A stretch of 64,000 nucleotides of DNA from Deltaproteobacteria bacterium. Lineage in GTDB: Bacteria; UBA10199; JACPAL01. The stretch lies in assembly GCA_016180855.1 (NCBI GenBank), contig JACPAL010000010.1:118988-182987 (forward strand). The letters are read 5' to 3'. Both the position numbers and the translations under genes were made by a program. This document shows, piece by piece, positions 7,477-14,484 of this stretch. The stretch's first letter is position 1. The number at the start of each line of letters is the position of its first letter. A model generated the notes under the pieces. The model was not told the DNA's origin. It searched no databases and worked only from the letters and a program-made list of their open reading frames with translations.

Positions 7477-7561
7477 GTCCCCTCACCCCAATAGCTCTCT
7501 CCCTTCGACGGGAGAGAGGAGTTGGATTCGATAGTGTCGTTACGAGAGAGGGTGGAGAAAA
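7477..7561 (+). repeat. Palindromic hairpin between nuoJ and nuoK
   Basis: CTCTCTCCC-ttcgac-GGGAGAGAG. Confidence 0.55.
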
Positions 7562-7870
7562 TTGATGGTTACATTACAATCTTACCTGATAGTCACATCG
7601 ATTCTCTTCTGCTTAGGTCTCTACAATGTCATCACGCGAAAAAATGCGGTTGGAATCCTCATGGGGGTAGAGCTGATTTTGAACGCCGCCTCCCTCAATA
7701 TGGTTGCCTTCTCCCATTTCAACGGCAACGATGTCGCCGGGAATATCTTTTCGCTCTTTATCATCGTTCTTGCTGCGGCCGAGGCGGCCGTTGCGCTCGC
7801 CATTGTCGTTTCGATCTATCGCCAGTTCCATACGATTGATGCGGAAGAGGCGACAACACTGAAAGGTTAG
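7562..7870 (+). CDS. nuoK: NADH-quinone oxidoreductase subunit K
   Basis: 102 aa, three TM helices, and the GVELILNAASLN motif. Confidence 0.9.
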   Translation: MMVTLQSYLIVTSILFCLGLYNVITRKNAVGILMGVELILNAASLNMVAFSHFNGNDVAGNIFSLFIIVLAAAEAAVALAIVVSIYRQFHTIDAEEATTLKG

Positions 7871-7876
7871 CCTTCA

Positions 7877-8359
7877 ATGAGTGCCATTGATTCTGTCCAA
7901 CTCTATACCTCTACAGGGCTCGGTTTTAGGCGCGATGGGGATGTCGCCCATCGTCCCTCCATGGGGGCGGGGGTTTCGTTTACTTTGCTGGAAGATCGGT
8001 TGGCGATTCCGGTGAATATCCATGCGGATCGTCTCCGACTTGGCACAGGTGGAATCGGGGGTGGTATTTGGGGATTGGGAGGGGACCTCTCCGGAAGGAT
8101 CTATTTGGGCAAGGCAAAATACCTGGGGACGATGAGCCTCGACCTTGGTCTCAAGGTTGATAATCTGATTGGAGAGGGGCAAACTGCCGTTGGTTTGACC
8201 CCTTTTGGCCGCATCGGTTTTCATAGGGACAAGGTGAATCTTGAAGGAGGGGTGTTGGCCTACAGCGGTCGTGAAGATATGAAGGCCGGACGCGGTTTTA
8301 TCATGATCAATGTAAATGCCTTGGCACTGGGTCAGGCGATTCTCAGAGAACCTCGTTAA
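7877..8359 (+). CDS. Hypothetical Gly-rich, beta-strand-rich protein inserted in the nuo operon
   Basis: 160 aa. No TM helix, no signal peptide, no recognisable motif. Same reading frame as nuoK, separated from it by a single TAG plus 6 nt. Confidence 0.5.
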   Translation: MSAIDSVQLYTSTGLGFRRDGDVAHRPSMGAGVSFTLLEDRLAIPVNIHADRLRLGTGGIGGGIWGLGGDLSGRIYLGKAKYLGTMSLDLGLKVDNLIGEGQTAVGLTPFGRIGFHRDKVNLEGGVLAYSGREDMKAGRGFIMINVNALALGQAILREPR

Positions 8360-8430
8360 TTATTGGAAAAAGCAATCTCCTTGACCTGGGGGATCTGTTT
8401 TTGTAGCGTGCCGTTCCTAAAATTCCTTTT

Positions 8431-10470
8431 ATGTTTGCACAAGTTAGTCAATGGGTGGTGTGGGTCCCTTTTCTCCCGCTGATCGGGGCGATGATCAACG
8501 GGGCTTATAGTTTTTCGGGGGCCAAATTGGTTCGTCCGATCGTTCATTGGATCGCCTGTGGATCGATCGGGCTCTCTTTTCTGATTTCGGCCGGAACCTT
8601 TCTTCATTTTAGCACCTTGCCGGTTGAGTCACGCGAGGTGACCGTGACCCTCTTCAACTGGATCCTTTTTGATAATCTGTGGGCCGATGTCGCCCTTCTC
8701 ATTGACCCCCTGACCCTGGTCATGATGCTCGTTGTGTCGGGCGTTGGGACGATTATTCATGTCTATTCGGTTGGCTACATGGCGCATGATCACAGCTATG
8801 CCCGCTACTTCAGCTATCTAAACCTTTTCTGCTTTGCGATGCTGTTGCTTGTGATGGGGGCCAACTTTTTCATGCTCTTTGTCGGTTGGGAAGGGGTTGG
8901 CCTCTGCTCCTACCTCCTGATTGGCTTCTGGTTTACGGACAAGGAGAAGGCGGTCGCTGGCATGAAGGCGTTTATTGTGAACCGCATTGGTGATTTTGGT
9001 TTTCTGATCGGTCTGCTCATTCTCTTTTGGGCCCTGCATGCCGTCGGATATCCGACGGTCTCTTTTTCGGAACTTAAGGAGGCTGCCCCGCTGCTTAAGG
9101 ATCAAACGTTGTGGGGCTTACCGGTGGTGACACTCGTCTGCCTCTTTTTCTTTGTCGGGGCGACGGGCAAATCGGCCCAGATTCCTCTTTATGTCTGGTT
9201 GCCTGACGCGATGGCGGGCCCAACGCCGGTCTCGGCCCTTATTCATGCTGCTACGATGGTGACGGCTGGTGTTTACATGATTGGGCGGCTCAATTTTCTC
9301 TACTCGATGTCACCCGAGGCATTGACTATCGTGGCGGTTATCGGTTTTCTTACGGCTGCGTTTGCTGCTGTGATTGCCTTTGCCCAGAATGATATCAAGA
9401 AGGTCTTGGCCTATTCAACAATCAGCCAGCTCGGTTTCATGTTTGGGGCGATGGGCGTTGGGGCCTATGTTGCAGGCATCTTTCACCTCGTGACCCATGC
9501 CTTCTTCAAGGCCTGTCTCTTCCTGGGGTCAGGGTCAGTCATCCATGCCTGCAGTGGTGAACAGGATATGCGCAAAATGGGGGATCTCAAAAAGTGGATG
9601 CCGATCACCTTTGCTACGTTTTTTACGGCAACGCTTGCGATTGCCGGCATCTTTCCACTCGCCGGATTTTTTTCCAAGGATGAGATCCTCTGGCACACCT
9701 TCAATCAGAAGCCACTTCTCTGGGTGGTCGGGGTCCTGGCCGCGATTGGTACCGCCATTTATATGTTCCGCCTTGTTGCCATGACCTTTTACGGCAAACT
9801 GCGACTCGAGGGGGATGCGCGCCACCACCTTCATGAGTCTCCTTATTCGATGACGGTTCCGTTGATCCTGCTTGCGCTCCTCTCCGTGGTTGGAGGTTTT
9901 TTGGGATTTCCGAATGTCTTGGGGCATCTCTTTGGTTTTCATGAGACCAACCACTTTGGCCGGTGGCTTGCCCCGGTCCTGGCGGTGCATCAGACGGAAG
10001 AATCACTGCTCCCTCACTCGGTGGAGTACGGTTTAATGATCTTCTCATTTCTGATTGCAGCGGTTGGTTGCTATGTCGGGTATACTTTATATACCCGGAG
10101 ACAGGATATCCCGCAAAAAGTGGTCGGCCGATTTCCTGTTCTTTATCGAACGGTTTTGAACAAGTTTTATGTTGACGAGGTTTATGAGGTTGTTTTTGTG
10201 AAGGGGTTGCTCAGGCTTAACAGCGCCTTGGCAAGCTTTGATCTCAAGGTGATCGACGGCCTCGTAAATCTCTCGGCCCTGTTGACCCGGATCACCTCGC
10301 GCATTTCCGGATTCTTCGACAAGATTTTTGTCGACGGCCTCGTGAATCTCGTGGCGAATAGCACACTCTGGAGCTCCGCCATCCATCGGATCCAGACAGG
10401 GAGGATTCAAAGTTATTTATACTATGCGTTGGGTGGCGTTGTCGTGATGCTGTTGTACCGAATTTTGTAA
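8431..10470 (+). CDS. nuoL: NADH-quinone oxidoreductase subunit L
   Basis: 679 aa. Antiporter-like TM core with a long C-terminal amphipathic extension. Confidence 0.9.
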   Translation: MFAQVSQWVVWVPFLPLIGAMINGAYSFSGAKLVRPIVHWIACGSIGLSFLISAGTFLHFSTLPVESREVTVTLFNWILFDNLWADVALLIDPLTLVMMLVVSGVGTIIHVYSVGYMAHDHSYARYFSYLNLFCFAMLLLVMGANFFMLFVGWEGVGLCSYLLIGFWFTDKEKAVAGMKAFIVNRIGDFGFLIGLLILFWALHAVGYPTVSFSELKEAAPLLKDQTLWGLPVVTLVCLFFFVGATGKSAQIPLYVWLPDAMAGPTPVSALIHAATMVTAGVYMIGRLNFLYSMSPEALTIVAVIGFLTAAFAAVIAFAQNDIKKVLAYSTISQLGFMFGAMGVGAYVAGIFHLVTHAFFKACLFLGSGSVIHACSGEQDMRKMGDLKKWMPITFATFFTATLAIAGIFPLAGFFSKDEILWHTFNQKPLLWVVGVLAAIGTAIYMFRLVAMTFYGKLRLEGDARHHLHESPYSMTVPLILLALLSVVGGFLGFPNVLGHLFGFHETNHFGRWLAPVLAVHQTEESLLPHSVEYGLMIFSFLIAAVGCYVGYTLYTRRQDIPQKVVGRFPVLYRTVLNKFYVDEVYEVVFVKGLLRLNSALASFDLKVIDGLVNLSALLTRITSRISGFFDKIFVDGLVNLVANSTLWSSAIHRIQTGRIQSYLYYALGGVVVMLLYRIL

Positions 10471-10484
10471 AACAAGGAGAGATT

Positions 10485-11972
10485 ATGTTCCCTTATTTGT
10501 CTTTTATGACCTTCTTCCCCCTTGTCGGGGCGGTTATCATTCCATTCCTTCCCCGAGGTAAAGATTCCTGGATTAAATGGCTTGCCTTGCTCACCACGAT
10601 CCCTCCACTCGTTGCCGCCTTTAAACTCTTTCTGATTTTTGATCGTAGCCAGGCCGGATTTCAGCTCATTGAGGGGCCGTTTGACTGGATACCGGCATTT
10701 CATATCCAGTACTATATGGGGATTGACGGGGTCTCGGTCTCGATGGTCCTCCTCACCGCCCTGATCTCCTTTATCTGTATCCTCGCCTCCTGGGGAATCG
10801 ACAAGCATCTCAAGGGGTATTTCTCTCTCTTCCTGTTGCTTGATGCGGGCATGATGGGGGTCTTTTGTGCACTCGACTTTTTCCTCTTCTACGTCTTCTG
10901 GGAAGTAATGCTGCTCCCGATGTATTTCCTGATCGGGATCTGGGGAGGGCCGCGTCGCGAGTATGCCGCGATCAAGTTCTTCCTCTACACGTTACTCGGT
11001 TCCGTCCTCATGCTTCTTGTGATGCTCGCGTTCTACTTCTTTAGTGATGGAAACACCTTCAATCTCGTGACACTCGCAAACCAGCAGGTCCATCTGGGTC
11101 CGCTGACGTCGATCAACTTCCGGCATCTCTGCTGGATGGCGCTTTTCATCTGTTTTGCGATCAAGGTGCCGATTGTCCCATTCCACACCTGGTTGCCGGA
11201 TGCCCATGTGGAGGCCCCAACGGCGATCTCCGTTATCCTGGCCGGTATCCTCCTCAAAATGGGGACATACGGCATCCTTCGTATTTGCTATCCGATTTTG
11301 CCTGATGCAACCGCCTATTTTGGAGAGATGATGGCGGTGATCGGCATGATCAATATTGTTTATGGGGCGTTGTGTGCGATGGCGCAGACTGACTTCAAGA
11401 AGTTGATTGCCTACTCTTCGGTGAGTCACATGGGTTTCTGTCTGTTGGGGATGGCCTCCTTTACGCCCGAAGGGATCAATGGGGCGGTTCTCCAGATGTT
11501 TAACCATGGGACGATTACGGCGATGCTCTTCTTGATTGTCGGGGTTGTTTATGACCGTGCGCATCATCGTGAGCTGGCCGGCTTCGGTGGACTGGCCAAG
11601 TCGATGCCTCGTTATTCTGTGATGACGGCCCTCGCCTTTTTTGCTGCGTTGGGCCTGCCAGGGCTCTCCGGTTTTGTGAGCGAGATCCTCTGTTTTCTGG
11701 GTGGCTTCAAGACATTCCGTCTCTATACGATTATCTCGGCAACCGGTATCGTGTTGACCGCGGGCTACATGCTCTGGACCTACCAGAGAGTTTTTCTGGG
11801 GAACTTGAATGAAAAATACGCCAAGATGCCGGAGATTAACGGGCGGGAGATGCTTACACTCGTTCCGCTGGCGGTGATCGTTGTCGTTGTGGGGATTTAC
11901 CCCCGCTTCATTCTTGATTTACAAAACATGTCGCTTTCAGCCTTAAGCAGCTTACATGTGGCGGGACTCTAA
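10485..11972 (+). CDS. nuoM: NADH-quinone oxidoreductase subunit M
   Basis: 495 aa antiporter-like subunit (WLPDAHVEAPT motif). Confidence 0.9.
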   Translation: MFPYLSFMTFFPLVGAVIIPFLPRGKDSWIKWLALLTTIPPLVAAFKLFLIFDRSQAGFQLIEGPFDWIPAFHIQYYMGIDGVSVSMVLLTALISFICILASWGIDKHLKGYFSLFLLLDAGMMGVFCALDFFLFYVFWEVMLLPMYFLIGIWGGPRREYAAIKFFLYTLLGSVLMLLVMLAFYFFSDGNTFNLVTLANQQVHLGPLTSINFRHLCWMALFICFAIKVPIVPFHTWLPDAHVEAPTAISVILAGILLKMGTYGILRICYPILPDATAYFGEMMAVIGMINIVYGALCAMAQTDFKKLIAYSSVSHMGFCLLGMASFTPEGINGAVLQMFNHGTITAMLFLIVGVVYDRAHHRELAGFGGLAKSMPRYSVMTALAFFAALGLPGLSGFVSEILCFLGGFKTFRLYTIISATGIVLTAGYMLWTYQRVFLGNLNEKYAKMPEINGREMLTLVPLAVIVVVVGIYPRFILDLQNMSLSALSSLHVAGL

Positions 11973-13449
11973 TCCGATGCGAGCCGATTTGACCTATTTT
12001 TGGCCTGTTTCTATCCTGATCGGGACGATCGTCCTCCTCTTCTTGATTGACTTCTTTTTGGGAGAGAGAAGAAAGTCGCTTTATCCTTTTGTTGCGGCGT
12101 CTGGTGCCGTCGGGATGGCGATGGCCAACGCCCATATGACGAATCTCCCAAGTGTCCGTTTCTTCTCCAATATGATCGTCTTTGATGGCATGGGGCATTT
12201 TTTCAATTACCTGTTCGCCGGTGCCTTGCTACTCGCGATCCTTTTTTCAACGAAATCGGAAGAGGTGGAGTGGACCGATGAGCCGAGCTACTACACGCTG
12301 CTGGTTGCCCTAACACTTGGGATGATGCTTCTTGCCGTTTCCAACCACCTCCTCATGATCTACCTGTCGCTGGAACTCGTGAGTGTCCTCTCGTATGTCC
12401 TGACGGGCTATGTCCGGGGATCGCGTCGCTCCTCGGAGGCCGCCCTTAAGTATGTGATTTATGGTGGGGTGGCGTCTGGGATCATGGCTTATGGGATGTC
12501 GCTTCTTTATGGATTGACCGGTTCCATGGAGTTGCCCGTTATTGCCGATTACCTTCAGACCCATGCGGTGAACCGTTCGGTCCTTTTTTTGTCGGTGTTG
12601 CTCATGATGGCGGGATTTGGATACAAGATTGCCGCCTTTCCGTTCCAGATGTGGTGTCCCGATGTCTATGAAGGGGCACCGACCCCTTTTACGGCCTTCC
12701 TCTCCGTTGGCCCCAAGGCGGCCGGGTTCGCAATTCTTATCCGTTTCTTCTTAACAGCGATGGGGACAAGAGGAGAGGCCGGTTTTATTGACCCCAAATT
12801 TTCAGGATGGCCGGAGTTAATGATCATTCTCTCGGTTGCAACGATGACGCTTGGAAACCTGGCGGCCTTGGTCCAGACGAATATGAAGCGACTTCTTGCC
12901 TACTCGTCCATTGCCCATGCCGGTTATATGCTTATGGGGTTTGCGGCCCTTAATGATGATGCGGTGCGTGCGATACTTTTTTACCTTGTTGTTTATCTTC
13001 TCATGAATTTGGGTGCCTTTTTGGTGGTGATTGTTGTTGCCAACCAGCTCCGGGTGGAGGACTTGCAGGGGTATGCGGGTTTAAGCCGTCGTGGAGGATT
13101 GGGAGCCGCTCTTTCAATCGCCATGGCGATTTTTCTCTTTTCGCTAACCGGCATTCCCCCTTTTGCCGGTTTTATCGGCAAGTTTTATCTCTTTGGTGCC
13201 GTGATTCGTTCCGGACTTTATGGATTGGCGATCATCGGTGTCTTGAATAGTGTTGTCTCACTCTACTATTATGTCAGGGTCGTGAAGCTCATGTTTTTTG
13301 ATGAGGCGTTGGACTCCCGCCCCTTTCCGATGCCTGTTCTTCGCCACGGTGTGGCCCTTGCCGGACTTGCCTTTTTGACACTTTACCTTGGGCTTTTTTG
13401 GAATGGGTTAGCCAACCTCTCGGCCCGATCGGCCACTCTGCTATTTTAA
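11956..13449 (+). CDS. nuoN: NADH-quinone oxidoreductase subunit N
   Basis: 497 aa antiporter-like subunit. An alternative ATG start at 11977 is possible. Confidence 0.85.
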   Translation: MWRDSNPMRADLTYFWPVSILIGTIVLLFLIDFFLGERRKSLYPFVAASGAVGMAMANAHMTNLPSVRFFSNMIVFDGMGHFFNYLFAGALLLAILFSTKSEEVEWTDEPSYYTLLVALTLGMMLLAVSNHLLMIYLSLELVSVLSYVLTGYVRGSRRSSEAALKYVIYGGVASGIMAYGMSLLYGLTGSMELPVIADYLQTHAVNRSVLFLSVLLMMAGFGYKIAAFPFQMWCPDVYEGAPTPFTAFLSVGPKAAGFAILIRFFLTAMGTRGEAGFIDPKFSGWPELMIILSVATMTLGNLAALVQTNMKRLLAYSSIAHAGYMLMGFAALNDDAVRAILFYLVVYLLMNLGAFLVVIVVANQLRVEDLQGYAGLSRRGGLGAALSIAMAIFLFSLTGIPPFAGFIGKFYLFGAVIRSGLYGLAIIGVLNSVVSLYYYVRVVKLMFFDEALDSRPFPMPVLRHGVALAGLAFLTLYLGLFWNGLANLSARSATLLF

Positions 13450-13818
13450 ATGAATCCCTATTTTTCACTCCTCCTCCTCTTTGCCTTTGCGTTACTCATT
13501 GGAGGCGGTTTTATCCTCCTCTCCCAGGCGCTTGGGCCTCGAAAGAGGAAGGCGACCAAGGAACTCCCTTATGAATGCGGTGTTGACCCGATTGATGAGC
13601 CGCGCCGTCGTTTCTCCGTAAAATTTTATCTCGTGGCGATGCTCTTCATCGTTTTTGATGTTGAGGTTGTTTTTCTTTATCCGTGGGCGGTGCTCTACAA
13701 GGAGTTCATCCGCTCCGGTTTGGGGATGTTCGTTTTTGTCGAAATGGCCCTTTTTCTGGGAATCCTCGTCGCTGGCCTCCTCTATATCTATGGCCGCCGG
13801 GCGCTGGAGTGGGAATAG
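13450..13818 (+). CDS. nuoA: Second NuoA/ND3-family paralog at the operon 3' end
   Basis: 122 aa. ECG, FDVEVVFLYPW. The ATG immediately abuts the nuoN stop (TAAATG). Confidence 0.85.
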   Translation: MNPYFSLLLLFAFALLIGGGFILLSQALGPRKRKATKELPYECGVDPIDEPRRRFSVKFYLVAMLFIVFDVEVVFLYPWAVLYKEFIRSGLGMFVFVEMALFLGILVAGLLYIYGRRALEWE

Positions 13819-13851: not shown

Positions 13852-14484
13852 ATGAGCATCGGCTCTATTTGTTCCTCCTTTATTGACCGGATCTCCGGGG
13901 CAGGGGAGTTAGGTCCGCTTATTGAGCACCTGGAAGAGACAGAGCTGGAGATTCGTCGACTGGCGGAAAGACTGGAAAATTTTAACGACGCGTTCGGTGA
14001 GGCGGCAGAAACAAGGTCCCGATTCCTTTATGATGGCGGGGAGCTGCTTTCTTCAGCGTTGCCTAAGGCAGAGGGGAGAAGTTGGAGATACGCCTGGTGG
14101 CTTTCCGATGCCTGCAATCGCCTTTCAGGCAGATTTACACGGGCCGAGCAGATGCTATTGGACCTGAGACAATATCAGCATCTCCCTCTCTTTGCGAAGA
14201 TACAGGCGAGGGTCTGTCGACCCGATTTCGACCAATTTTTCTTGAGAGGGTGTGCGAGATTCATCGGCAAGACCCCTGATGCTGACAGCAGGGCCTTTAG
14301 GAGGTTTAGTTCACCGCTATCTCGTCGCGCGTATCGGATTTTTAGCGGAGTTACGATCGACGAGATTGCTTATCGACTTGATGTCCTAAGAGAGGTTCGG
14401 AGAGGGCGTGCCCACTTATCCCTCGCCCTGTTGGGGGGCGCGATCCTGTTTGGCGCTTACCAGTGGCATAAATTTTCCGAGTAG
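13852..14484 (+). CDS. Hypothetical protein with a C-terminal TM helix
   Basis: 210 aa ORF with no recognised motif and no obvious RBS. Confidence 0.4.
   Translation: MSIGSICSSFIDRISGAGELGPLIEHLEETELEIRRLAERLENFNDAFGEAAETRSRFLYDGGELLSSALPKAEGRSWRYAWWLSDACNRLSGRFTRAEQMLLDLRQYQHLPLFAKIQARVCRPDFDQFFLRGCARFIGKTPDADSRAFRRFSSPLSRRAYRIFSGVTIDEIAYRLDVLREVRRGRAHLSLALLGGAILFGAYQWHKFSE

Follow-up and report, generated by a model that had tools for sequence, protein, structure and literature searches.

The question raised by this locus is what kind of gene stands between nuoK and nuoL in a complex I-type (nuo) operon, and how it came to be there. The operon lies in a 64,000-nucleotide stretch of contig JACPAL010000010.1 (assembly GCA_016180855.1, Deltaproteobacteria bacterium), hereafter called the window. 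The extra gene is a 160-aa open reading frame (ORF) at 7877..8359 on the + strand, and is referred to as ORF X throughout. The original prediction, made from the sequence alone, described it as an extra cistron whose ATG lies 6 nt past the nuoK stop in the same reading frame, with which coordinates and sequence agree. Our favoured answer, to which we assign a probability of roughly 60%, is that ORF X is a real gene of a rare family that encodes a signal-less barrel resembling an outer membrane protein (OMP), and that it is a hitch-hiking insertion in the nuo operon, not a conserved subunit or a readthrough product. The argument turns on three features:

7565..7870, + strand: nuoK (NuoK/ND4L, 101 aa, complete; Pfam PF00420, E 3e-26), ending in ...TLKG-TAG
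7877..8359, + strand: ORF X, a signal-less, predicted 8-stranded OMP-like beta-barrel with a short C-terminal helix, from codon, homolog and fold evidence
8431..10470, + strand: nuoL (679 aa; Pfam PF00361, PF00662, PF01010), whose N-terminus aligns with its orthologs

The nuoK stop codon TAG (7868-7870) is followed by the 6-nt spacer CCTTCA (7871-7876) and then by the ATG of ORF X, which ends with TAA at 8357-8359. nuoK and ORF X share a frame (7565 and 7877 are both 2 mod 3).

ORF X as a gene of a rare family

Coding potential was examined with frame-specific codon models, for which 32 long genes of the window served as the training set. They favoured the annotated frame of ORF X by 0.187 nats per codon, inside the range of 0.06-0.25 obtained for the real small genes tested. 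Negative scores were produced by 10/10 spurious antisense ORFs and by a 116-aa antisense ORF inside ORF X. In the strain haplotype L001/L002, from the same sample series, ORF X shows four changes, three of them synonymous and the fourth conservative (T103A).

When 1.84 billion representatives were scanned exhaustively with HMMER, 8 homologs of ORF X were identified besides a 99% variant. The best homolog, P0002 (169 aa), is 42% identical to ORF X (E 1e-22), and is followed by P0003 (E 8.5e-16), P0004 (E 2e-15) and P0005 (E 3e-12). A tenth match, P0009, aligns through Gly-rich repeats only. Members of the family range in size from 155 to 270 aa and share motifs along the full alignment (IQGIQLYTGHG, P-I/L-N, GIW-x-GG, LRLD, G-V/L-TPFGR-V/I-GF, NLEGG-LAYSGH, SAGRGY-M-N-N). 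Because of the codon statistics, the strain variation, the homologs and the family alignment, we conclude that ORF X truly encodes a protein, one whose family is very rare and unannotated.

No family member matched Pfam (E up to 10), NCBIfam, PHROGs, PADLOC or any PDB sequence. The NCBI entry for ORF X, from a groundwater metagenome-assembled genome (MAG), reads only 'hypothetical protein HYW02_04075 [Deltaproteobacteria bacterium]'. The original description of an unrecognised Gly-rich, beta-rich extra cistron in the nuo operon holds. A word-index protein search with ORF X alone returned the 99% variant and nothing else, and profile A1 returned only 4 proteins because Gly-rich words swamp the candidate list. 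The genome-contig scan with ORF X gave no match, and metagenome-contig and viral-contig scans with alignment A2 gave no relatives. As the matches in BFVD were only generic OMP-barrel phage proteins (E ~1e-3), they provide no viral link. A phage origin and a role as a defence effector were considered and are without support, PHROGs and PADLOC having given no meaningful match. Within the 64-kb window no further copies of the insert, no ORF X paralogs and no Rfam RNAs were found.

Seven homolog loci were compared, and all have differing, non-nuo contexts. Homologs were found after a hexapeptide-repeat protein gene next to ilvD, between ftsY and a ferredoxin/radical-SAM (S-adenosylmethionine) gene, near secA and flhA, and beside a HigB-like toxin-antitoxin pair. 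Judging from these neighbourhoods, the family has no link to nuo beyond the present insertion. P0012, a 197-aa relative found in the same sequencing runs as ORF X, is probably in the same MAG, as its NCBI accession and one of those of ORF X are only 239 apart. It adjoins an AsmA/TamB-like gene and a peptidoglycan glycosyltransferase gene, which is a weak hint at an envelope role.

Several homologs are also adjacent to, or overlap, other unannotated beta-rich, signal-less ORFs of 164-243 aa (L089:3559-4053, L093:4759-5301 and, on the minus strand, L097:1079-1810). A 164-aa ORF after P0002 and a 180-aa ORF before P0007 were tried as ORF X paralogs and rejected, BLASTP and hhalign having shown no similarity. 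No similarity of the beta-rich neighbours to ORF X or to each other was detectable. These neighbours may be partner barrels.

The predicted barrel and the missing signal peptide

The structure of ORF X was predicted with AlphaFold2 from the 9-sequence family alignment. The model has a mean predicted local distance difference test score (pLDDT) of 87.3 and a predicted template modelling score (pTM) of 0.79. It comprises eight strands of 8-17 residues and the C-terminal helix (residues 148-156), and its only uncertain part is a Gly-rich loop around residues 54-63. Of the two architectures that the original prediction proposed to distinguish, beta-sandwich and barrel, the model shows the barrel, an eight-stranded antiparallel up-and-down barrel as in small OMPs. 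This topology recurs in the prediction for P0007, with less confidence (pLDDT 70.9; 80-91 in the core blocks). Foldseek comparison of the ORF X model with the PDB returned mostly outer-membrane barrels. Eight matches had a TM-score of at least 0.5, and 6/8 were OmpA, Ail, OmpW (twice), NspA and PagL; the best E value was weak (1e-3).

The faces of the strands were assigned from DSSP strands, and the entropy difference between the faces was tested by 20,000 permutations. The composition of the two faces in the family was as follows:

Hydrophobic face: L 22%, V 14%, G 11%, F 11%, A 10%, I 9%; hydropathy +1.87; entropy 1.67 (variable)
Polar face: G 26%, N 10%, S 8%, D 6%, T 6%; hydropathy -0.77; entropy 0.94 (conserved)

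The mean hydropathies of the two faces of the eight predicted strands bear out the alternating strand pattern that had been noticed in the sequence. The observed entropy difference was reached in 0/20,000 permutations. The invariant residues are nearly all on the polar face, and include Q8, Y10, G14, G32, G68, R74, D89, G91, K93, G99, G106, T108, R112, G114, E123, G125, N145 and N147. Small outer-membrane barrels have a conserved Gly/polar face and a variable aliphatic/aromatic face; soluble barrels have a conserved hydrophobic core. The hydrophobic runs of ORF X are ~9-11 residues per strand, begin at the short-turn end and would fit a belt of ~25 Å. With the hydrophobic face placed outward, the strands would form the dyad repeat of small OMPs, a lipid-facing hydrophobic belt around a polar/Gly lumen. 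We infer that the family is a lipid-embedded barrel with a filled polar lumen.

The last strand of ORF X (K-A-G-R-G-F-I-M; in the family S-A-G-R-G-Y-x-M) fits the pattern polar-x-G-x-x-aromatic-x-hydrophobic, which we take to be a loose form of the beta-signal motif of the beta-barrel assembly machinery (BAM). The C-terminus itself is not aromatic, and runs on into the helix past the last strand.

As a rule, bacterial transmembrane beta-barrels have a signal peptide, are exported through Sec and depend on BAM for assembly. The ORF X family lacks the Sec signal peptide of classical small OMPs. ORF X is 18.1% Gly and contains no Cys. Its maximum Kyte-Doolittle 19-residue window is only 1.21, versus 2.82 for NuoK, so it has no transmembrane helix, and its best N-terminal 10-residue window is 0.63, so it has no signal-peptide h-region. 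The original prediction was therefore accurate in describing a Gly-rich protein without either element. An N-terminal hydrophobic region was absent in 9/9 family members examined. The longer members P0003 and P0005 have N-terminal extensions that are hydrophilic, not signal peptides. A GGAGG-type ribosome-binding site directly precedes the ATG at 5/7 homolog loci, and an in-frame stop lies 3-19 codons upstream of the ATG at 7/7; ORF X has an in-frame TAG two codons upstream of its start. The in-frame upstream stops and ribosome-binding sites fix the start codons of the family. A twin-arginine (Tat) signal at the RR of residues 18-19 of ORF X was rejected, since the family does not conserve the RR and a hydrophobic region is missing behind it. 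Because the defining signal peptide was tested for and is missing, we refrain from classing the family among the OMPs. Its appearance, and probably its behaviour, is that of a membrane barrel.

The small eight-stranded OMPs (NspA 1p4t, OmpX/Ail, OmpA-TM 1bxw, OmpW 2f1t, OprF N-domain) resemble ORF X in size (~150-180 aa) and in strands that alternate between hydrophobic and Gly/polar residues across a belt of ~9-11 residues. Unlike these proteins, the ORF X family has no signal peptide and no profile similarity to an OMP Pfam family or PDB chain. At its C-terminus ORF X also has a short hydrophobic helix and a tail that varies, instead of an aromatic residue, and it is encoded inside a respiratory operon.

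In most of the closer homologs, the Ser/His motifs YSGH and YTGHG lie near one barrel rim, which we take to be reminiscent of the rim-located active sites of outer-membrane enzymes such as PagL. Unlike PagL lipid A 3-O-deacylase (2erv), to which it is 9-10% identical, ORF X has no signal peptide and no match to the Pfam PagL family. The catalytic rim His/Ser (with Glu) of PagL was looked for and not found in ORF X, which reads YTSTG and YSGR at the two putatively equivalent motifs.

How ORF X came to lie in the nuo operon

The operon of the window encodes 11 subunits and is without nuoEFG. Its gene order is:

5' part, starts: nuoA 2525, nuoB 2983, nuoC 3496, nuoD 4017, nuoH 5202, nuoI 6492, nuoJ ~6970
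3' part: nuoK 7565-7870, ORF X 7877-8359, nuoL 8431-10470, nuoM 10485, nuoN 11956

For comparison, 80 related loci were fetched with NuoL from species-representative genomes, and gap statistics were computed over 73 loci. The nearest NuoL relatives come from uncultured 'Pseudomonadota' and 'Deltaproteobacteria' MAGs (66-72% identity), followed by UBA10199-type MAGs (55-57%) and then Bdellovibrionota (~49%). In the loci L009-L012 (NuoL 66-72%), NuoK is 71-86% identical, the nuoK-nuoL gap is 5-16 nt (6 nt in L009, 5 nt in L010) and ORF X is missing. NuoK ends in the same LKG-stop in these loci, its C-terminus being identical in pattern in the L009 and L010 orthologs, and in relatives the same LKG codons precede nuoL. 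Over the 73 loci the median gap is 8 nt and the widest is 240 nt, versus 560 nt here. ORF X is absent from the nuoK-nuoL junction of all 73 related loci, and tblastn against all fetched loci gave no match outside its own population. Because the relatives have short gaps and no tblastn match, ORF X is a lineage-specific insertion. Three features mark its left and right ends:

7861..7866, + strand: GAAAGG, a Shine-Dalgarno-like motif within the last nuoK codons, 10 nt before the ORF X ATG; putative function, from sequence and junction comparison
7871..7879, + strand: CCTTCAATG, left copy of a 9-nt direct repeat (7/9 identical)
8425..8433, + strand: CCTTTTATG, right copy of the direct repeat, which includes the nuoL start codon

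The sequence suggests an insertion 554 nt long, bracketed by this imperfect direct repeat, and the CCTTCAATG/CCTTTTATG pair would be a junction duplication. Removal of 554 nt would restore TAG-CCTTTT-ATG, a 6-nt nuoK-nuoL gap as in L009. Integron-cassette and insertion sequence origins were rejected, as no terminal inverted repeats were seen and the junctions show only the 7-of-9 direct repeat.

We propose that an insertion of ~554 nt brought the ORF X gene exactly to the nuoK-nuoL junction in this lineage. ORF X would then have taken over the slot 6 nt after the nuoK stop together with the Shine-Dalgarno-like GAAAGG, which serve nuoL in relatives, and nuoL would have been displaced to 71 nt downstream of ORF X. 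Given this slot and motif behind nuoK, ORF X would most likely share the nuo transcript and rely on coupling to nuoK for its translation. Its predicted product would form a lipid-embedded or lipid-associated eight-stranded barrel.

The premise of the original prediction, that the nuo operon is tightly conserved, proved too strong. The Rhodobacter capsulatus nuo operon holds urf genes, e.g. urf7 (PMC9036352), and other lineages have palindromic inserts at the nuoK-nuoL junction. Like ORF X, the alphaproteobacterial nuo/nqo urf genes are extra non-subunit cistrons in a complex I operon and are presumably co-transcribed. Urf7 is described as a SAM-dependent methyltransferase (PMC9036352), whereas ORF X is a predicted beta-barrel without a known domain and sits at the nuoK-nuoL junction; the urf genes are conserved in their clade, whereas ORF X is confined to one species-level population.

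Non-coding inserts of 146-240 nt were seen at the same junction elsewhere (L025:5809-5956, L018:5743-5968, L022:1759-1995, L086:5625-5866). The L025 insert has a long near-perfect palindrome, and repeats, both inverted and tandem, occur in the L022 and L018 inserts. Small elements seem to have landed at this junction repeatedly.

Downstream of ORF X, the spacer before nuoL holds these features:

8360..8430, + strand: ORF X-nuoL spacer, 71 nt, without a Shine-Dalgarno motif before nuoL; the most divergent segment between strain variants
8375..8404, + strand: weak hairpin of 7 pairs (3 G-C), then CTGTTTTTGT; terminator-like, no better than chance
8381..8409, + strand: promoter-like TTGACC-17-TAGCGT with 5/6 and 3/6 matches; not reported by the consensus scan

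The scans revealed neither a convincing terminator nor a convincing promoter around ORF X. The terminator scan found 22 sites versus 19.9 expected, and the spacer (8340-8440, z-score 0.20) folds no better than shuffled sequence. The TTGACC -35 hexamer sits in the loop of the hairpin, behind which comes a T-run. The promoter-like sequence reported in the original prediction is present, although at 8381..8409 and not at 8383..8411, and its -10 hexamer, with 3/6 matches, is below the scan threshold.

Strain variant L001 has a further 468-bp insertion directly after the ORF X stop (L001:802-1269; insertion point at window 8362-8364). It contains an antisense 109-aa ORF (minus strand, L001 865-1194) and a GC-rich hairpin, CCCCGCGGTCTTGTCGCGGGG, between two convergent stops. 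The antisense ORF has a strong GGAGGAG ribosome-binding site, and its product two C-terminal hydrophobic segments. Read this way, L001 would have an antisense gene and a likely bidirectional terminator inside its nuo operon, and its nuoLMN would need a promoter of their own. TTGACC-17-TAGCTT is retained in L001, which keeps the sequence a candidate promoter. The spacer and first nuoL codons (8360-8440 vs L001 1270-1350) are ~82% identical over ~66 nt, as estimated by eye, compared with 99% in ORF X and 98.5% over the next 1 kb. NuoL begins with MFAQ in the window and with MLEQ in L001.

Other observations concern the rest of the operon. A perfect 9-bp hairpin, CTCTCTCCC-TTCGAC-GGGAGAGAG, lies at 7495-7518 (+ strand) in the 88-nt nuoJ-nuoK spacer; no T-run follows its stem, and it is not among the sites of the terminator scan. 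Directly after nuoN comes a second nuoA-like gene (13450-13818, + strand), whose 122-aa product is 42% identical to the first NuoA (2525-2962). Because relatives have the same arrangement, e.g. L009 (75% identity), L011, L013, L014 and L017, the nuoN-nuoA2 order is a clade feature. nuoA2 is followed by a 210-aa ORF (13852-14484, + strand) without a Pfam match at E 1e-5 or better, and then by an OPT-family transporter gene and polA. Compared with the window, 57 nt of nuoM (11577-11633) and 102 nt of nuoN (12451-12552), both multiples of three, are missing from one related contig, L004 (GCA_016187815.1, JACPIZ010000094.1). The segment between the two deletions is 98.9% identical to the window, rather than 99.9%, which points to an assembly of mixed strains or to in-frame indel variants.

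Competing explanations and significance

The original prediction also raised the possibility that TAG readthrough produces a NuoK-X fusion, which would add a beta-rich domain to NuoK. The shared frame, with only Pro-Ser between TAG and Met1, is what favours this, but a frame is shared by chance in 1 case in 3. TAG is the stop of 12/39 genes in the window, and within the window there is no tRNA gene, hence no suppressor. NuoK is full length and ends exactly as its orthologs do, the N-terminus of ORF X aligns with those of free-standing homologs that have their own ribosome-binding sites, and ORF X has its own GAAAGG upstream. Since TAG is an ordinary stop here and the homologs start independently, we reject readthrough as very improbable. 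We give even less credence to the idea that the 560-nt stretch is non-coding, a mobile-element remnant or regulatory spacer that is open by chance. The palindrome-rich non-coding inserts of L018, L022 and L025 at the same junction, and the lack of an annotated family, would suit such an origin. Homologs in other genomes with E values down to 1e-22, coding-like codon statistics, a confident fold prediction and strain variation biased to synonymous changes all speak against it, and the insert is not repeated elsewhere in the window. ORF X could instead be a lineage-specific accessory subunit or assembly factor of the 11-subunit enzyme, docking near NuoK/NuoL. That ORF X lies inside the operon on the same strand, 6 nt behind nuoK and not flanked by any strong terminator or promoter, is what one would expect of such a protein, and the urf genes in nuo operons are a precedent (PMC9036352). 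We nevertheless consider it improbable: related nuo operons show no conserved presence or position of ORF X (73 junctions), every homolog is outside nuo operons, and ORF X has no homology to any known core or accessory complex I subunit. L001, moreover, tolerates an insertion with an antisense gene right after ORF X, so the junction behaves as a permissive insertion site.

A soluble cytoplasmic barrel is also unlikely, though less so. Here the hydrophobic face of an eight-stranded barrel would line a cavity that binds lipid, polyisoprenoid or quinone, and the position in nuo would reflect a quinone-related helper role. Ligand-binding soluble barrels include the YceI, lipocalin and avidin-like proteins. 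The soluble eight-stranded barrels (YceI-like, avidins, Cap15) share the up-and-down barrel with ORF X, and Cap15 and avidin-type proteins can be cytoplasmic or leaderless. A family-wide lack of a signal peptide is expected of a cytoplasmic protein, and ORF X adjoins the genes of a quinone-reducing complex I. However, outer-membrane barrels score clearly higher, aligning 126-135 residues versus ~100-116 for soluble barrels, and the Foldseek PDB matches include no avidin, lipocalin or YceI-type barrel. The composition and conservation of the faces are opposite to expectation, as the exterior, 26% Gly and 10% Asn, would be conserved and the core variable, and the homologs are not consistently next to nuo or quinone genes. 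Several points weigh against our own favoured OMP-like, hitch-hiking barrel. The main weakness is that we know of no route by which a signal-less barrel with a hydrophobic exterior could reach the outer membrane. The outward face of the strands is assigned from composition and conservation, and no sequence profile in Pfam or PDB ties the family to any OMP family. Members are very few (8 homologs and the 99% variant among 1.84 billion representatives), and the model alignment has only 9 sequences. ORF X has also lost two His residues kept by most closer homologs (YTGHG to YTSTG, YSGH to YSGR), and may be a functionally degenerate copy if these residues form a functional site. A bolder version, which we think improbable, makes the family a new class of signal-less membrane beta-barrels, one copy of which was recruited beside nuoK as a membrane-arm partner of the 11-subunit enzyme. 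Such barrels would insert into the cytoplasmic membrane from inside or would reach the outer membrane independently of Sec.

For the biology of complex I, the finding is largely a negative one, in that the extra cistron joined the operon recently as a hitch-hiker and adds no new subunit. The tight, translationally coupled nuoK-nuoL junction tolerates insertions, with two successive gene insertions in this population and palindromic elements in other lineages. The operon story is thus one of ordinary gene insertion, and the real oddity is the signal-less OMP-like family. This family is either a counter-example to the rule of Sec export and BAM assembly, or a warning that OMP-like predictions can describe cytoplasmic proteins.
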